Positions 949 to 42,759 of a stretch of DNA of 64,000 nt are shown piece after piece (position 1 is the first letter of the stretch; every line of letters starts with the position of its first letter). The DNA is from Dehalococcoidia bacterium. GTDB taxonomy: Bacteria > Chloroflexota > Dehalococcoidia > Plut-88900. Made by a program: the position numbers and the translations under genes. The DNA lies in contig CBDBLV010000005.1 in the NCBI GenBank assembly GCA_965207225.1, positions 1,632,001 to 1,696,000 on the forward strand, in the 5' to 3' direction. The notes under the pieces were generated by a model that did not search any database, was not told where the DNA came from, and was given only the letters and a program-made list of their open reading frames with translations.

Positions 949-1920
949 TCAATAGACCTCAAAGATTTTGAGGGTGATGAGCTTTATGAGGGCCTCGGCG
1001 GCGAAACGGGGTGTACGGCTGCTGGGGTCGAGGGGTGGGGAGGTCTCGACGAGGTCCATGGAGCCGATGGGGAACTGGGACAGGGGCCCGAGGATCCGGA
1101 AGAGGGTCGAGGCGGTCATAGCTCCCATGGTGACGGAGCCGGTGCCATCGGAGAAGCCAGCGTCTATCACGTCGATGTCGAAGCTCATGTAGATGGTGTC
1201 GCAGCCTCGCATGGCCAGCTCTCCGGCGCGGTAGCCGACGGTCTCGGGACCCATTTCCTCAACGTCTTCGCTGGTGAAGATGGTGCCTCCGTAGCGCCGG
1301 ATAAGCTCGACCTGGTCGAGGTAGCAGGGGCCCTGGATGCCGATGAAGACCATGTTTGCGGGCTCCATGGCATCGAGTTCGGAGATGCGCCGGGCGTTGG
1401 TGCCGTTCATGTACTTGCCGTAGGGGCCGTAGGAATCGGCGAAGTCCAGGTGTCCGTCGATGTGGATGTAGCCGACGCGGGCGTTGGGTCTAAGTCGGCC
1501 CAGGGCCCGGGTGTAGCCAAGGCAGGATGGGTAGCCGACGTAGTGGTCGCCGCCCAGGCAGACGGAGAATCCGCCCCGCATCACCACCTCAGAAACACCG
1601 CCGGCGATACCCTCGGTGGCCTTCATCACGTCGGAGGGGTAGGAGTTGAAGTCTCCGACATCGACGAGGGGGAAATCGTTGGGGCGGATTAGGGTGTGGC
1701 CAGTCGTTACGTCTATGAGGCCCTCGGGGGCGTGGTCGAACTTCTGGGAGACGTTAAGAGAGTGGTGGCGGATGCCCCGAGGGCCGTAGCGTTCGCCGAA
1801 GCGGTCCCGGAGGCTGTGGGGTGCGCCGCTTATGACGGTCATGCCGGGCTGTACGTCGGAGAGGCCGACGAGGGGAGCGCCCATGAAAGTCGGGGCTGAG
1901 GTATGTGCGTAGTCCTGCAT
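949..1920 (-). CDS. Ureohydrolase (agmatinase family), metal ligands intact
   Basis: GGDH, HIDGHLD and SFDIDVID motifs. Confidence 0.9.
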   Translation of the reverse strand: MQDYAHTSAPTFMGAPLVGLSDVQPGMTVISGAPHSLRDRFGERYGPRGIRHHSLNVSQKFDHAPEGLIDVTTGHTLIRPNDFPLVDVGDFNSYPSDVMKATEGIAGGVSEVVMRGGFSVCLGGDHYVGYPSCLGYTRALGRLRPNARVGYIHIDGHLDFADSYGPYGKYMNGTNARRISELDAMEPANMVFIGIQGPCYLDQVELIRRYGGTIFTSEDVEEMGPETVGYRAGELAMRGCDTIYMSFDIDVIDAGFSDGTGSVTMGAMTASTLFRILGPLSQFPIGSMDLVETSPPLDPSSRTPRFAAEALIKLITLKIFEVY

Positions 1921-1933
1921 GGTGTTTGGGGCG

Positions 1934-2917
1934 CTAAGGGTAGGCGAGGGCCTCCCCGGCGAGGAAACGGATGACTATCCAGGCCCCGAGCCGTTGTCCT
2001 GTGGCGGAGACCATGTTGATGGTCGGGTTCATGCCGACGAGGTCAAGGGCCCCGGCCTTCTTGCGGCGAAGGATGTCTACAGCTTTCAGTAGCTCGACGT
2101 TGGTGAGGCCATCGAAGCAGGGGTCGGCGGTGGCGGCGACGATGCCGCCATCCATCACGTCAAAGTCAATGCTGACGTAGACGGAATCACAGCCGTCACC
2201 GGCGATGGCCATAGCCTCTTCGACCACGGGCTGGAGGCCCCGTTGCCGGATGTCGGCGAGGGTGAAGACGGAGAGGTCATTTTCTCGGGCGTAGTCCCAC
2301 TCCTCTCGGCGGACGTAGCCGTTGACGCCCACCCAGACCATGTTCTTCGGGGAAACGGCGCCCGAATCCAGGATGCGTCGGGCGGTGGCGCCGCGCCAGA
2401 CGTCTCCCCAAACGGGATCACTTGACCCGAGGTCGAGGCGGCTGGAAAGCTGGATATAGCCAACGCTGCCGCCCGAGCGTTCGCGCACGGCATCGGCGTA
2501 GCCGAGGCAGAGGGGGTAGGAGATGAAATGGTCGCCGCCGAGGACTACTGGGGTCGCACCCGTGGAGGCTACTTCGTAAAGAGAGCGTCGCAACTCCTTC
2601 TCGGTGCGGGGCCAGTCGAGGGGATAGGCGTTGAAATCGCCGAGGTCGAGGATCTGGGAGCGTCGGGCGCCGCTCATGCGGTCCCCGGTGGTGATTTCGA
2701 CTAGGTCGTTGCGGGAGAAGGCGCCGGCGTAGTAGGAAGCGCTGTCTCGAATGGCCCGGCCTCCGAAGCGCGAGCCGATGCGGGAGGTGCAGGATAGATC
2801 GTAGGAGACGCCGCAGATGGCAACCATGCCCTCTCTGAGGTGCTCAAGGTCCCCGCGGGGCAGGTCCATGAAGGTGGTAATGCCCGGCGTGGAAACGGGT
2901 GCGGATTGCGTAGTCAT
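1934..2917 (-). CDS. Ureohydrolase-family protein, partly degenerate metal site
   Basis: GGDH and SIDFD retained; DxHxD replaced by SSRLD. Start placed at MTTQS to avoid overlap with the upstream gene. Confidence 0.85.
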   Translation of the reverse strand: MTTQSAPVSTPGITTFMDLPRGDLEHLREGMVAICGVSYDLSCTSRIGSRFGGRAIRDSASYYAGAFSRNDLVEITTGDRMSGARRSQILDLGDFNAYPLDWPRTEKELRRSLYEVASTGATPVVLGGDHFISYPLCLGYADAVRERSGGSVGYIQLSSRLDLGSSDPVWGDVWRGATARRILDSGAVSPKNMVWVGVNGYVRREEWDYARENDLSVFTLADIRQRGLQPVVEEAMAIAGDGCDSVYVSIDFDVMDGGIVAATADPCFDGLTNVELLKAVDILRRKKAGALDLVGMNPTINMVSATGQRLGAWIVIRFLAGEALAYP

Positions 2918-2931
2918 CAGGGTGTCGGGGG

Positions 2932-3912
2932 TCAGGCGCCGAAGACCCGGGGGGCGATTAGCTCGATGATGCACTGGGCGGCGAGGCGCTCGGAGCGGCC
3001 CCGGACGTCGAGGCCCGGGGCTACTTCCACCACGTCCAGGGCGGCGATCTCGGAGGAGGTGGACAGGGCGCGCATGAGAGCCAACAGGTCTCTGGGGACG
3101 ACGCCACCGACCACTATATCGGCGGTGCCGGAGGCGTAGCCTGAGTCTACGACACCGATGTCGAGGCTGACGTAAATGGCGTTGCAGCCGTCTCCGGCGA
3201 GGTCAAGGGCTCGTTGGGCAGCGGCCTCGGAGCCCTGTTCTTTCAGGGAGTCGGCGGTGATTACGGTGACTCCCTGGTCTCGGGCGTGGTCCCATTCGCG
3301 GTAGGGTATGTAACCCTGGACGCCGATGCACACGGTGTTCCTGGCCTGGACGTTGCCAGCGTCGAGGATGCGATGGAGGGACGCACCTGTCCAGTCGGGG
3401 CCGTGGGAGGAGTCGGGATTGGCGAGGGAAAGCTGGCCGGATAAACGGATGAGGCCGACATTTTGTCCCAGGCCTTCGGCCAGGCCTCCGACCAAGGGGA
3501 AGGTGATGAAGCGATCGCCGCCGAGGGCCACGGGGAAGCCGCTGGATTTCGAGATACGAGAGAAGGCATCGGTGCAGGCATCAATGACGCCCTGTGAGTC
3601 CAGGGGGGAAGACTGGAGGTCACCGAGGTCTACGAGGGCATTGGTACTGGGGGTGTTGAGAACTCGGCCGGAGATGACGTCGATGAGGGCGCCGGACTGG
3701 GAGGCCTGGAGGTCGTAGATGAAATCTGCGCTGGCTTCGCGGATGGACCTGGGGCCCTGGCGAACGCCCTGCCGGGAGGTGGATGCGCCGTCATAGGGGA
3801 TGCCGACGACGGCGACGGCACCTGGCTGGATGTCGTCGAAGTCGGCTCTCGGGGCACGGGCGAAGGAGTTTATGCCGGCGAACGAGGGTAAGAGGTCTCG
3901 CTGGTAGGGCAC
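2932..3912 (-). CDS. Ureohydrolase-family protein, degenerate metal site
   Basis: GIPYDG and GVRQGP fold motifs present; GGDR, SGQLS and SLDIG replace the ligand motifs. Confidence 0.85.
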   Translation of the reverse strand: MPYQRDLLPSFAGINSFARAPRADFDDIQPGAVAVVGIPYDGASTSRQGVRQGPRSIREASADFIYDLQASQSGALIDVISGRVLNTPSTNALVDLGDLQSSPLDSQGVIDACTDAFSRISKSSGFPVALGGDRFITFPLVGGLAEGLGQNVGLIRLSGQLSLANPDSSHGPDWTGASLHRILDAGNVQARNTVCIGVQGYIPYREWDHARDQGVTVITADSLKEQGSEAAAQRALDLAGDGCNAIYVSLDIGVVDSGYASGTADIVVGGVVPRDLLALMRALSTSSEIAALDVVEVAPGLDVRGRSERLAAQCIIELIAPRVFGA

Positions 3913-38675: not shown

Positions 38676-38705
38676 ATTCTAACTTTGAGGGGAATGGGGA
38701 GTCAA
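38676..38705 (-). promoter_or_regulatory. Putative valS promoter
   Basis: TTGACT-18 nt-TAGAAT on the minus strand. Confidence 0.5.
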
Positions 38706-39229
38706 TTGGAGGGGAGGGTGCGCCGCGTCACGCGGCATAGGATACCCGACTCACTCGGGAGGGACTCGGAGGAAGTCCCTGGGTCAACCGACCTACCTTG
38801 AGGCGAAAGCCGAGGGGGAAAACAGCATGTCGGTAAAGCGGCTACGGCCCCAAAGCGTTGTAGGGCCGGTTCCGCAAGACCCGCGCGATATGGTGAAGGC
38901 TTGATTGCTTGAACCCCAGTCTCCAGTTGGTGAAAATCGCCACCCGCCGGTAGAACGCTTGTAACCCGGCGCCGCTCATCGCATGGATGTGTCCTGTCAA
39001 TCCGTGCACCTCCGATGAGCGGGCAATGACCCATGCGGTCAATTCAAGGAGACGAACGGGGCACCTACAGTCGCGCTAGAACGTCCTATGCTGACGGAAC
39101 GCGGGATCGCCTAAGGGACGCGAGTCCTATGGTGACGGAGCCTCCGTAGTAGTCCGAGGACGGGAAAGCCGTCCACATGGCGAAGGGAGGCAGGTGTCAA
39201 ACCGAAACTCAGAAAAGGAGGTGCGCGAG

Positions 39230-41020
39230 ATGCGCAACGCCGAAACCATACTGGGAATCATTCGCGACAGAGGTACACGGGGACTGCCCGTGAACGACCT
39301 TTACCGCCAACTTTGGAACCCGAACCTGTACCTGACGGCCTACGGGCGTATCGCCAAGAACGACGGTGCGCTCACCCCAGGCGCAACACCGGAGACCGCA
39401 GACGGGATGAAGATGGACGACATCCACGCGATCATCGAGGCCCTCCGCTTCGAGCGCTACCGATGGACTCCGGCCCGCCGCGTATACATCCCGAAAGCCA
39501 ACGGGAAGCGGCGGCCACTCGGACTCCCAACGTGGTCGGACAAAGTGCTGCAAGAAGTTATGCGTCTCCTACTGGAGGCGTACTACGAACCGCAGTTCAG
39601 CGACCGGTCGCACGGCTTCCGGCCCAACCGTGGATGCCACACGGCGTTCACGGAGATAACCCGCACCTGGACAGGCACGACATGGTTCATCGAAGGAGAT
39701 ATCGCCGGTTGCTTCGACAACATCGACCATAAGGTGTTGCTGGAAATACTAGGCGAGAACATCCAGGACAACCGTTTCCTGCGGCTTGTTTCCAACCTCC
39801 TTGGGGCTGGCTACCTTGAGGACTGGAAGCTCAACGCCACCTACAGTGGCACACCTCAGGGAAGTGTGGTGAGTCCCATACTCGCCAACGTCTACCTAGA
39901 CCGGTTGGACAGGTTCGCGGAGGACGTGCTCTTGCCCGAATACAACCGTGGCACCGGACGACGGAAGAACCCGCAGTATCAAAGGGTTTCCAAACGAGTT
40001 ATGCGTCTACGGCAATCTGGCCATGCAAAGGAAGCGGCGGAACTTCGCCCACTCCTGCGCACCATGCCCAGCCACGACACCCATGACCCGGCCTACCGCC
40101 GTCTCCGGTACACACGGTACGCCGACGACTTTCTACTCGGTTTTGCGGGGCCAAAGAACGAGGCCGATGAGATCAAGGCCCGGCTAGGCAAGTTCCTGCA
40201 AGATAACCTCAAGCTGGAGCTATCCGACGCTAAAACCCTGGTCACCCACGGCCGCACTGAGGCAGCACGGTTCCTCGGCTACGAGGTCGTCGTTCAGGGG
40301 AGCAAAGACAGGCTCGACGCCAGTGGCCGCCGATCGGTCAATGGTATCATCGGGCTGCGCGTTCCCCAAGACGTCGTACGCGCCAAGAGCGCCGCCTACA
40401 TGCGTAACGGCAAACCAATCCACCTTGGAATACGAATTCATGACTCGCTTTACAGCATCGTGGAACAGTACCAGGCGGAGTACCGGGGTGTCGTCAACTA
40501 CTACCGGCGTGCAACCAACCTGGGCGCACTAAGCCATCTCCGTTGGGTCATGGAAATGTCACTTGCCAAGACACTCGCGGCAAAGCTGAAGATCAGCGTG
40601 CCACAGGTGTTCAAGCGGTACAAAACTACGATTCAGACTGACAAAGGGCCTCGCAAGGTCCTGATGGTGAAAGTGGCCGAGCCGGGCGAAAAGACGCTGG
40701 TGACGTACTGGGGCGGGGTTTCGCTTGCGCGGGACAACGCGGCAACCCTGGTCGATAAACACCCCCCGATACTCAATAGTCGGACGGAACTCGAACAGCG
40801 CCTGCGGGCCAACGTCTGCGAGCTTTGCGGCTCAACGGTGAAGGTCCAGGTGCACCACGTACGAGCGCTGAAAGACTTGCGAAAGAAGGGACGGGCCAAG
40901 CCGCCCGTTTGGGTGGAGGTCATGGCAGCACGGCGTCGCAAGACGCTCGTGGCCTGTGCGTCATGCCACGCGGACATCCACGCCGGACGCCCGCTGAAGC
41001 AGAACGAACAGGCAGCCTGA
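39230..41020 (+). CDS. ltrA: Group II intron reverse transcriptase/maturase with C-terminal HNH-type domain
   Basis: RPLGLP, SHGFRP, GDIAGCFD, GTPQGS, RYADD, CELCG..HH..CxxCH; AAGGAGGT RBS. Confidence 0.96.
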   Translation: MRNAETILGIIRDRGTRGLPVNDLYRQLWNPNLYLTAYGRIAKNDGALTPGATPETADGMKMDDIHAIIEALRFERYRWTPARRVYIPKANGKRRPLGLPTWSDKVLQEVMRLLLEAYYEPQFSDRSHGFRPNRGCHTAFTEITRTWTGTTWFIEGDIAGCFDNIDHKVLLEILGENIQDNRFLRLVSNLLGAGYLEDWKLNATYSGTPQGSVVSPILANVYLDRLDRFAEDVLLPEYNRGTGRRKNPQYQRVSKRVMRLRQSGHAKEAAELRPLLRTMPSHDTHDPAYRRLRYTRYADDFLLGFAGPKNEADEIKARLGKFLQDNLKLELSDAKTLVTHGRTEAARFLGYEVVVQGSKDRLDASGRRSVNGIIGLRVPQDVVRAKSAAYMRNGKPIHLGIRIHDSLYSIVEQYQAEYRGVVNYYRRATNLGALSHLRWVMEMSLAKTLAAKLKISVPQVFKRYKTTIQTDKGPRKVLMVKVAEPGEKTLVTYWGGVSLARDNAATLVDKHPPILNSRTELEQRLRANVCELCGSTVKVQVHHVRALKDLRKKGRAKPPVWVEVMAARRRKTLVACASCHADIHAGRPLKQNEQAA

Positions 41021-41152
41021 GTACCAACCGTTGCAACAGATAGGTAGTGTTCCAACCGTGAAACGCCCAAACACCTTCCGTTCCCAACGGGGCCGGTGGT
41101 AGACTGGGACACGGCAGACCTTCCCTCGAAACAGCACTGGAGGTTCCGGAGC

Positions 41153-41653
41153 GTGGATACAAAACTCGTCTTCGTGATCCCGACCTTGGTCGGACTCCTC
41201 CTTGCATTCAGCTTGGCTTGCAGTGATGCAAAACAAGACCCTGTGCTTGCTCGGGAGCAGGTTGAACTGGACAGGCATCGTGACATGTGGGAGCAAACCC
41301 GCGCCCATGACTACACGTATGAGTACAGCGTACTCTGCGAGTGCCCGGATCACGCCAGCAAGACCGTCAAGGTCACTGTACTGGACGGGGACATAGAGTC
41401 AGTCGAAAGCGTAGGGTTCGTCGAGTCCGCCATCTATACAAAATCTGGTGGGCCAATGACAGAACTACCCCGCTACCACACCATCGACCGCTTTTTCGAC
41501 GTGATCCAAGAAGCCATTACCGGTGAGGCCGACCAACTTACCGTCAGCTACGACAGTGAGTTCGGGTACCCAACGAAAGTCGAGATTGACTACACCGTCA
41601 ATGCGATAGACGACGAGTATACCCTCAAGGTCAAAGCTTACTCGCCTCACTGA
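41153..41653 (+). CDS. Lipoprotein, DUF6174-like, inside intron domain IV
   Basis: GGAGGT RBS; signal peptide ending LAFSLA-C; W....DYTYEY...CEC, TIDRFF, YD.EFGYP, DDE. Confidence 0.75.
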   Translation: MDTKLVFVIPTLVGLLLAFSLACSDAKQDPVLAREQVELDRHRDMWEQTRAHDYTYEYSVLCECPDHASKTVKVTVLDGDIESVESVGFVESAIYTKSGGPMTELPRYHTIDRFFDVIQEAITGEADQLTVSYDSEFGYPTKVEIDYTVNAIDDEYTLKVKAYSPH

Positions 41654-42076
41654 ACAGGCTCACACGAGCCTGGCCCCTACGATGCGGACGGTGCCACCGG
41701 CACCTCACCACAGACGCTACCTCCTGTAACGACACCGGAGAGCCGGATGACGCGAAAGTGTCACGTCCGGTTCGGAGGGGGGCCGACGGAAAAGTGCTCC
41801 ATTAGCGCGGAGTAACTCGCCGGCGGCCTACCCGACACTTGTAGGGTGAGCGGCAGTTTCTCAGGGGAGGCGCGGGCCAAGAGCCTTGCGAAATACCCGG
41901 GCATCGAGGGAGCGGCGTGAATGTGCGGTATATGGCACCGTGTTCATTGGCCCACGTGCGTGATTGACGCCCAGCTCAAGAAGGACCAACCATAGCTACG
42001 ATGCGCGTGGGCGCCGTGAATCATGGCGCGAAATATCATGGATCCGGTTAGAGCTTCCTCTACCGTCAGCTTGAGG

Positions 42077-42400
42077 TTACTCCTCTCCTACCTCGGAGAA
42101 GTTGGTGATGGCAACTTCGCCTTCTGGAAACTCGGCGACGATCTTCAGTTTCCCGCCTACTGCCTCAATGTAGGACCGCAAGCTGGATACGTACACATCG
42201 GCCCGCTGCTCCAGCTTGGAAACTGCGGGTTGGTTCACATTCAGCATCTTGGCCATGTCTCGCTGGGTTAGCGCCAGCGCCCGGCGAAGCTCGTGCAGCG
42301 GCATCTCGGCGAGCAACTCCCTCTTAAGGTCGTCGATGCGCCGCCGGCGCTCCGGCGTGAAATCGCTGGTCAGTTCGCTAAATGGATGGCGTCCACTCAT
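42077..42400 (-). CDS. XRE/HigA-type HTH antitoxin
   Basis: LTQRDMA.MLNVNQPAVSKLEQRAD..VSSLRSYIEAVGG. Confidence 0.9.
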   Translation of the reverse strand: MSGRHPFSELTSDFTPERRRRIDDLKRELLAEMPLHELRRALALTQRDMAKMLNVNQPAVSKLEQRADVYVSSLRSYIEAVGGKLKIVAEFPEGEVAITNFSEVGEE

Positions 42401-42759
42401 TTGATCAGTCCTTCCTTTCGAAGCTCTTCAAGATGTTCATCGTAGAGGGCGTCGGCCACGGGCACGTACTCCTCATAGAACCGGTCGTTGCCTGTCTTGT
42501 CGCCTCCGATGAGCAGAATCGACGTTCGCCTGGGGTCGAAGGCGTAGAAGACTCGAAGGGGCCTGCCGGCACTCTGCGTTCGAAGCTCGCGCATAACACC
42601 GTGCCGAGAGCCGGTGATGTCTGAGGAGTAGGAGTATGGCAGGTTGGGGCCGTGCTCCATCAGCAACTCGACTCTGGCGGCTACTGCATCCTGCTGGTTC
42701 TCCGAAAGTTCCTGCCACCACCGCCTGAACTCATCCGTGTATTCGACCTCCCAAGGCAT
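42397..42759 (-). CDS. RelE/HigB (Gp49-like) toxin
   Basis: WEVEYTDEF, MRELR, RVFYAFDPRR..ILLIGGDK; toxin precedes antitoxin. Confidence 0.9.
   Translation of the reverse strand: MPWEVEYTDEFRRWWQELSENQQDAVAARVELLMEHGPNLPYSYSSDITGSRHGVMRELRTQSAGRPLRVFYAFDPRRTSILLIGGDKTGNDRFYEEYVPVADALYDEHLEELRKEGLIK

Follow-up and report, generated by a model that had tools for sequence, protein, structure and literature searches.

Can a bacterial group II intron carry a gene that has nothing to do with its own mobility? To our knowledge, such introns are regarded as minimal selfish elements with no coding capacity beyond a protein for their own mobility, and their use to deliver genes is known solely from engineering, in the form of targetrons. 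The question is raised by a 64-kb stretch of DNA (the window, whose positions serve as coordinates throughout) from the Dehalococcoidia bacterium assembly GCA_965207225.1, contig CBDBLV010000005.1, a genome of 4.03 Mb in five contigs; the sequencing runs that contain the stretch include a sponge metagenome. It holds a group II intron of 3119 nt (38718..41836, plus strand, as for all features of the window unless stated otherwise) that is ~700 nt longer than relatives without an additional gene (about 2400-2450 nt). This is probably a complete, LtrA-like mobile intron in which a helix-closed side loop of domain IV (DIV), placed after the stop codon of the reverse transcriptase (RT), holds an independent gene of the DUF6174 family. 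Other introns of Dehalococcoidia form a set with it: in all of them this spot, in most of them closed by the same helix, serves as a bay for different small genes, chiefly for envelope proteins.

The window intron and its additional gene

The intron begins with GTGCG at 38718 and ends with ...CCUACCCGAC (GAC) at 41836, so that its termini have the GUGYG and AY form of group II introns. Domains I-III (38718..39192) are 72-80% identical in nucleotide sequence to the related introns L016, L018b and L019 (L, G and X with a number denote loci, genomes and sequencing runs; G000 is the window's own genome and WIN the window intron). The basal helix of DIV is formed by GGTGTC (39193..39198) and the complementary GACACC (41731..41736). 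Domains V and VI (DV and DVI, 41738..41836) give the sole Rfam match in the window (RF00029; score 62.8 bits, gathering threshold 40, E 5.7e-10), and an unpaired A 7 nt from the intron 3' end provides the bulged branch point.

Between the two strands of the DIV helix lies the intron-encoded protein (IEP; 39230..41020), with RT, maturase (X) and HNH domains. Its longest open reading frame (ORF) runs from GTG 39194 to 41020 (608 aa), and the true start is likely the ATG at 39230, which is in frame behind AAAGGAGG. The ORF matches RVT_1 (E 4.5e-31), Intron_maturas2 (5.2e-14) and AI2M-like_HNH (8e-14) in Pfam, and the YADD motif is present. The nearest solved protein is LtrA of the Ll.LtrB intron (5g2x, E 3.4e-115, residues 35-595). 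Because this match far exceeds those to other solved RTs (E 2.6e-36 or weaker), the intron is provisionally assigned to the LtrA-like type (mitochondrial-like, ML/IIA), from its nearest solved protein alone.

The distance from the RT stop codon (41020) to GACACC is 710 nt. It contains a lipoprotein gene (41153..41653) of 166 aa from GTG 41153, lying within a longest ORF of 185 aa (41096-41653) that matches DUF6174 (PF19671) with E 3.9e-31 and 108.3 bits against a cutoff of 23.8. Given the Pfam and Rfam scores, a chance origin of the identities of the intron and of this cargo is excluded. A Shine-Dalgarno motif GGAGG (41139..41143), read from the sequence, lies 9 nt before the GTG. From there the protein begins MDTKLVFVIPTLVGLLLAFSLAC followed by S, which by alignment would be a signal sequence with a lipobox cysteine. 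When the cargo is aligned with 22 homologues, the lipobox residues L21, A22 and C23 are invariant in all 23 members, a CxC pair is invariant or nearly so, and 14 other positions are invariant; every invariant residue of the family is retained in the cargo. PF19671 is found in all 59 cargo homologues recovered, and the gene in the intron is the only DUF6174 gene of its genome.

Two GC-rich hairpins without a T-run, read from the sequence, follow the cargo stop codon (41655..41704). The first (CAGGCTC..GAGCCTG, 41655-41672) is common to the homologous genes of L140 and L135, and the second is GGTGCC-ACC-GGCACC (41690-41704); a scan called no terminator-like site at either. ORF, Rfam and Pfam scans of the insert showed no transposase, no second ribozyme and no other Pfam-matching ORF. 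The AlphaFold2 model of the cargo, based on the 23-sequence alignment, has a mean pLDDT (predicted local distance difference test) of 60 and a pTM (predicted template modelling score) of 0.53, and no function was derived from its fold; a Foldseek comparison of this model with the PDB gave no match at E <= 0.001 (best TM 0.42). An earlier sequence-only reading of the locus had proposed these ribozyme landmarks, an intact RT with YADD and an HNH-type domain, and a separate DUF6174-like ORF with its own ribosome-binding site (RBS) and lipobox, and all of them were recovered here.

The insert is closed by a long-range helix. Its 5' strand (GTTGCAAC..AGGTAGTGT, 41030..41050) pairs with its 3' strand (ACGCTACCT..TGTAAC, 41714..41730) in both the minimum free energy and the centroid fold of 41021-41737. 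The duplex has an energy of -33.2 kcal/mol, which was equalled by none of 200 shuffled sequences.

An empty allele, which the sequence-only reading had suggested looking for, is present in the sister species G008. There the upstream flank (the start of valS and its leader) is 95% identical, and after ~9 nt it continues into the homologue of the downstream flank and a HigB/HigA-like gene pair, with no intron. G008 reads ...GTCAATTGGGCGGAGTG CTGGTAGGGTGAGCG... and the window reads ...GTCAATTGGAGGGGAGG, then the intron, then ACTTGTAGGGTGAGCG...; both intron termini agree with this site. The comparison shows that an empty site exists and that the whole 3119-nt unit, including the cargo, is the indel.

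Cargo in related introns

An alignment of RT sequences gave 546 confirmed relatives in species-representative genomes. The best 80 loci were kept, and the window, a second intron of the same genome and the loci of G004 and G011 were added. An nhmmer model served to locate DV and DVI, and the distance between the RT stop codon and the 3' strand of DIV was measured. Introns were included when they had an RT ORF of at least 540 aa, YADD and DV within 1.5 kb, which left 84; introns with a frameshifted RT, such as L034, the second intron of L020, the first introns of L039 and L080, and L017, were excluded. The distance is -32 to +25 nt in 71 introns (total length about 2400-2450 nt) and 338-1008 nt in the remaining 13 (2745-3313 nt). 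All 13 are found in metagenome-assembled genomes (MAGs) labelled Dehalococcoidia or in the window's genus. Among close RT homologues, inserts of this kind thus either carry other cargo or are absent.

These inserts have recurring ends. A motif GGTAGYGT is located near the 5' end in 10 of the 13 cargo introns; their inserts start with (TA)GGTAGYGTC at most 25 nt after the RT stop codon, which in L056b forms part of the motif, and end with GACAYTACC 6-11 nt before the 3' strand of DIV. Variants of the 3' end are GACGCTACC in the window, GATACTACC in L056b and GACACT[A]TCC in L019/L020. The two boundary 9-mers are complementary, with deviations that are G-U pairs, one bulge or single mismatches. 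Sister introns without cargo have no such motif and their RT stop codon abuts the DIV strand. Alternative helices read by eye in L009b, L016 and L018a did not rise above chance (z -1.5, -0.5 and -0.5) and were dropped. A strict pattern of the 3' boundary was found in no stretch of a metagenome contig collection, and a looser pattern was found in two metagenome contigs (L143 and L144) and in no viral contig. L144 is a further cargo intron outside the 13, with an 82-aa ORF without Pfam match and a frameshifted RT. L143 has a DinB_2-like ORF before DV and was not counted as a cargo intron, because the contig ends before any RT.

The cargo consists of lipoproteins, four families of membrane proteins and one cytoplasmic protein. 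The lipoproteins are the DUF6174 protein of the window, a DUF4377 protein in L060 (E 2e-11), a protein with collagen repeats in L016 (opposite strand, E 1.4e-7) and two unnamed families: one in L056b, homologous to the cargo of the broken-RT intron L017, and a 197-aa family in L037, L056a and L092, whose L056a member has an open frame no earlier than residue 31 (168 aa). Small membrane proteins are encoded in L019/L020, L090, L078 and L018a (the last on the opposite strand), and L009b has a putative cytoplasmic protein of 217 aa with a sub-threshold DUF429 match. The cargo ORF is in sense orientation in 11 of the 13 introns, clear Shine-Dalgarno motifs precede about half of the cargo ORFs, and none of the 13 inserts contains a transposase or recombinase ORF.

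Another position is used in L023, a case outside the 13 and a 4097-bp contig labelled as a Nonomuraea MAG, where a lipoprotein ORF of 166 aa and a hairpin (2312-2974) lie in the distal loop of DVI, not in DIV. The RT identity is 73%, the cargo has the RBS AAGGAG and a signal sequence ...AAVCVAC/AG, and the 3' exon is the SNF2-helicase homing site also used by L016 and L018b. A 952-nt element in L018 (8796-9747) was considered as an RT-less, cargo-only intron and rejected, as it results from an internal deletion of the RT, the N-terminal 15 residues being joined to the HNH end, and carries no cargo; this locus has three introns within 8 kb of an SNF2-helicase gene.

In a FastTree tree of the 84 RTs the cargo introns are found in three places, interleaved with cargo-less introns, and the fully supported clade of the window has seven members, four with three unrelated cargos and three without. 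L020, with a 95-aa membrane protein ORF, and L021, with no insert, are sisters with ~91% nucleotide identity at the same homing site. L056b is 94% identical to L037 in domains I-III and occupies the same site with a different lipoprotein, and the cargo-less L039 and L053 occupy that site too. One cargo family is found at two sites of the SNF2-type helicase gene (after GTGKTF and after GGFIDTFKD): the cargos of L037 and of L056a/L092 are 85% identical in nucleotide sequence, and the backbones 88% (RT) and 87% (domains I-III). Such matched divergence of cargo and backbone at different sites is as predicted by co-mobilisation. The exon flanks of L016, L018, L037, L039, L053 and L056 place these relatives, with or without cargo, mostly in conserved motifs (GTGKTF, LTGTLLGG and GGFIDTFKD) of an SNF2-type helicase gene. 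The helicase gene of L009 is located near ssb and a DUF6094 methyltransferase gene in what looks like an integrative or conjugative element.

Genes homologous to the cargo also occur outside introns. A DUF6174 homologue is present in 24 genomes of a 401-genome sample of the class, and the best are from the same genus (G008, 58%, and G005, 54%), where they lie among ordinary chromosomal genes; DV was found near none of 19 DUF6174 loci examined. G008 has homologues of both the L017/L056b lipoprotein (L099, 238-666, plus strand; E 2e-29 and 9e-20 for the family) and the DUF6174 cargo (1495-1956, minus strand) 830 nt apart, and both cargos may come from one functional neighbourhood. In G402, a 5'-truncated DUF6174 gene is followed by DIV, DV and DVI without an RT, with 71% nucleotide identity to positions 2534-3119 of the window intron. 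This fragment lies on contig 7 (L140, 4491-5083, and L141, 4588-5180) and has been duplicated along with 296 nt of its 3' flank, the two loci sharing 889 nt at 97.8%. They were therefore not taken as two independent 5'-truncated retrotransposition products, as the shared sequence extends beyond the intron end. The fragment in L140 is fused in frame to an N-terminal fragment of an ABC ATPase, which explains a database protein annotated as ABC_tran plus DUF6174. In G401, a homologue (68%) shares the leader and the first hairpin, with no RT or DV within ~5 kb. Together, G402 and G401 show that the intron-borne DUF6174 module is older than the window copy and that cassette-like units can lie outside introns.

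The genome of the window has no second full copy of the intron. It has a 371-nt 5' remnant (G000 contig 4, 836624-836994; L003/L011), whose identity to nt 1-373 of the window intron is 82%, and a second cargo intron ~116 kb upstream of the window (G000 contig 5, 1551936-1555178, minus strand; L009 6937-10179, minus strand) that is 70% identical. The RT of the latter has 614 aa and is 58% identical to that of the window. An 818-nt gap ahead of its DV is occupied by the 217-aa ORF (L009 7142-7795, minus strand; DUF429 match below threshold, E 0.004), and a 22-nt tandem duplication follows the RT stop codon.

Possible acquisition and spread of the insert

When the intron is transcribed, the closing helix (AGGUAGUGU/ACGCUACCU together with GUUGCA/UGUAAC) would probably join the ends of the 700-nt insert, and with these ends brought together DIV and the ribozyme core could still fold. 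The RT/maturase/HNH protein would then splice the intron with the cargo aboard and reverse-splice it into DNA, the cargo being copied as part of the intron RNA. With its own RBS, the cargo would be translated either before or after excision of the intron, and then exported and lipidated. The window copy would have arrived as one unit at its ectopic intergenic site upstream of valS.

A wider reading is put forward tentatively, as somewhat less probable than its negation: that marine or sponge-associated Dehalococcoidia have an intron lineage with a dedicated cargo bay, the DIV loop and in one relative DVI, in which accessory genes are captured, swapped and carried by retromobility. It is a comparably tentative part of that reading that the genes, mostly for lipoproteins and membrane proteins, are drawn from the pool of the hosts and moved between genomes and mobile elements. 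Capture may occur by template switching of the RT onto mRNAs, which would explain both the predominant sense orientation and the 3' hairpins.

Several observations weigh against the intron as a carrier of its cargo. The duplex energy of the closing helix exceeds that of shuffled sequences for only 3 of the 13 modules (WIN, L060 and L056b); in the others the case for the helix is made by the complementary 9-mers that recur and that may descend from a single motif. The same helix ends and ~20 nt of leader are found in two RT clades that are only ~57% identical, and their presence in both Dehalococcoidia clades argues for either exchange of modules between intron lineages or repeated loss. These shared ends and the G401 unit also fit an exchange of cassettes at the DNA level. 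In that case the insert would be a separate mobile or recombining cassette, MITE-like (a miniature inverted-repeat transposable element) or moved by a host site-specific recombinase at the 9-bp inverted ends GGTAGTGTC/GACACTACC, with DIV as a landing site only and no part for the intron in acquiring or spreading it. Such a cassette would account for the perfect or near-perfect inverted 9-mers that bound 10 of the 13 inserts, for closely related backbones at one site with unrelated cargos, and for the leader-ORF-hairpin unit of G401, which adjoins transposase genes. We nevertheless regard it as unlikely. The inserts encode no transposase or recombinase, and the boundary alignments show no direct repeats or target duplication flanking the insert ends. 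Within the 4.03-Mb genome, the only instance of the 5' motif and its leader (TAGGTAGTGT; AGTGTYYCAACNGTG) is the one in the window intron, and all complete units that were seen occupy one and the same position of DIV in this intron lineage. The G401 copy is without the GGTA part of the 5' end and without the 3' end motif, and an RNA helix explains the inverted ends just as well.

An IS-like (insertion sequence) insertion, the alternative named in the sequence-only reading, is contradicted by the absence of a transposase, of a target duplication and of another copy in the genome; the 9-bp inverted ends are present. That reading had also proposed that the retroelement acts as a gene-delivery vehicle. 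The comparison lends support to this: a 3.1-kb unit that is absent from the orthologous site contains the only DUF6174 gene of the genome.

Further observations also weigh against carriage, and in part they favour a dead end. In that case the ectopic insertion and the extra DNA in DIV would be a matter of chance, neutral or disabling, and the cargo would be a passive load until its decay and would deliver nothing that matters. The window intron is an ectopic intergenic insertion upstream of valS and the only full copy in its genome. Its candidate EBS1 (exon-binding site) loop, identified by alignment columns, is GTGTCCTGTCA (38989-38999), with EBS1 CCTGTCA at 38993-38999. Only 5 of its 7 positions pair with the intron-binding site IBS1 of the 5' exon (GGGGAGG), and the pairing is interrupted by an internal mismatch; in relatives, 6-7 of the 7 positions in these loop columns pair with the 5' exons, perfectly in L018b, L019 and L020 and with one G-U pair in L021. 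A consensus scan found no sigma-70-like promoter on the plus strand. In two metatranscriptome runs (X19 and X20) no contig covered 40372-41658 and no exon junction was found, and what covers domains I-III and DV-DVI in these runs is for the most part 90-95% alike and thus derives from related introns. Joints skipping DIV (39168 to 41809, 39186 to 41736 and 39196 to 41762) have matching sides of only 24-30 nt. Joints from domain III to DIV/DV, with ~2550-2640 nt skipped, come from contigs of DNA runs and of a single RNA run (depth 101). The DIV-skipping joints probably, on weak grounds, come from RT-less relatives abundant in the community. Broken relatives exist as well: the RTs of L017 and L144 are disrupted, and G402 has its 5'-truncated fragment.

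The dN/dS of the RT (the ratio of non-synonymous to synonymous substitution rates) is 0.20-0.28 in seven of eight pairs and 0.40 in the eighth (L037/L056b). That of the cargo of related introns is 0.65 (L019/L020), 0.67 (L017/L056b) and 1.0-1.6 (the 197-aa family), in places near 1, which would fit a dead end. A dead end is nonetheless unlikely. The RT of the window is open with all motifs kept and has a dN/dS of 0.24-0.25 against three relatives, and the DV-DVI score of the window intron is as high as those of relatives. The cargo retains all residues that are invariant in its family, and thirteen independent introns with intact RTs retain an insert. In the 197-aa family two of three copies (L037 and L092) have the full frame at 15% nucleotide divergence, and the ORF of L056a starts inside the signal sequence. 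The cargo dN of L056a/L092 (0.076) is higher than the RT dS (0.038), which suggests fast evolution of the protein and not decay. The cargos are thus best read as mostly retained genes in fast, perhaps diversifying, evolution, with relaxed selection as a less favoured alternative.

An assembly artefact, with the cargo misjoined across repeated intron sequence, is extremely improbable: introns are repeats and the genome is metagenome-assembled with 8.3% estimated contamination, but run X1 has a 767-nt contig over 40993-41759, run X5 from an independent study has contigs over 40663-41156 and 41215-41732, neither run shows any difference, and the same architecture is found in 12 other assemblies. 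Short-read-derived contigs of two studies thus bridge the RT end, the cargo and DIV/DV, which makes a chimera, one of the ways in which the sequence-only reading would fail, unlikely.

The surroundings of the intron are given here as context. A promoter-like site of the divergent valS gene (TTGACT-18-TAGAAT, 38676..38705, minus strand) lies 12 nt outside the intron 5' end; it comes from a consensus scan only, with one site found against a shuffle mean of 1.0. Directly downstream of the intron (42077-42759, minus strand) are an HTH_37 antitoxin-like gene (42077-42400) and a Gp49/HigB-like toxin gene (42397-42759), with paralogous pairs on contigs 3 (86% nucleotide identity) and 4 (78%). Two copies of a third group II intron, which is of a different class, are also present in the genome, one on contig 5 and one on contig 2 (L009 2554 to about 4480 and L010 2232-2332, both minus strand), with an RT of 572 aa (GIIM and HNH) and no cargo; on contig 5 it is directly upstream of a DUF6094 methyltransferase ORF.

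Comparison with known systems

The window intron resembles introns of the Ll.LtrB/LtrA type (mitochondrial-like, IIA) in its 5' GUGYG, its DV and DVI, its IEP with RT, X and HNH endonuclease domains in DIV, and the basal helix of DIV. Homing into mobile-element genes is a further shared trait, seen in its relatives with genes for SNF2-type helicases. It differs in the unrelated, RBS-bearing gene added between the RT stop codon and the 3' strand of DIV. The passages of Zimmerly and Semper 2015 (PMC4424553) on variant forms name introns without endonuclease, with degenerate IEPs, with LAGLIDADG proteins or without ORF, group III introns, trans-splicing, altered splice sites, alternative splicing and twintrons, and a class with an RT plus an unrelated gene is absent from that list. 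The LAGLIDADG group II introns of fungal mitochondria and Thiomargarita described there likewise have a non-RT ORF in DIV (PMC4424553). In those introns, however, the LAGLIDADG protein replaces the RT and serves mobility, whereas the window intron retains its RT and has a lipoprotein without evident mobility role.

A further parallel is artificial. According to the sections of Enyeart et al. 2014 (PMC3898094) on cargo, engineered targetrons deliver cargo genes and the DIVb loop is the best site. Both kinds of intron have their cargo in a peripheral loop of DIV, downstream of the IEP or replacing it. The same sections report that cargo of >1000 nt sharply lowers targetron efficiency (PMC3898094), which counts against the proposed carriage; the natural inserts (338-1008 nt) are almost all under the ~1-kb limit quoted there for targetrons. 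The introns described here differ from targetrons in being natural, with the IEP in cis, a recurring closing helix and envelope proteins instead of markers as cargo.

Twintrons and insertions of IS elements into introns also have extra DNA nested in an intron. The single RF00029 match in the window leaves no second ribozyme for a twintron, and an IS element or MITE is contradicted by the lack of a transposase and of flanking repeats and by the unique 5' motif. Phage morons and the cassettes of integrons and dif modules are small self-contained accessory genes, often for envelope proteins, that are swapped at a fixed permissive position. By analogy, the introns may be likened to them in that contents appear to be exchanged between conserved boundaries of a mobile element; the carrier would differ in being a ribozyme retroelement, in which no integrase and no attC-like or dif-like site was identified. 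Full-text literature searches, with subscription-only journals and supplements outside their reach, turned up no account of non-RT cargo that occurs naturally in bacterial group II introns, nor did the passages of a 2022 survey (PMC8919778) retrieved by a term search describe natural cargo genes.

The case thus extends beyond a single intron to a lineage in which the cargo position recurs. If the proposed carriage is true, group II retroelements can act as vectors of accessory genes, a natural gene shuttle. The introns would be retroelement counterparts of integron cassettes and phage morons, and natural precedents for targetron delivery. They would also hold natural answers to the problem of cargo size and folding, with the closing helix as a design that can be copied, and cargo capture by the RT would be a testable route by which bacterial retroelements gain cellular genes. 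As to any benefit for the hosts, the bias towards envelope proteins and the location of the introns in helicase genes of mobile elements hint at a role in surface variation or exclusion.

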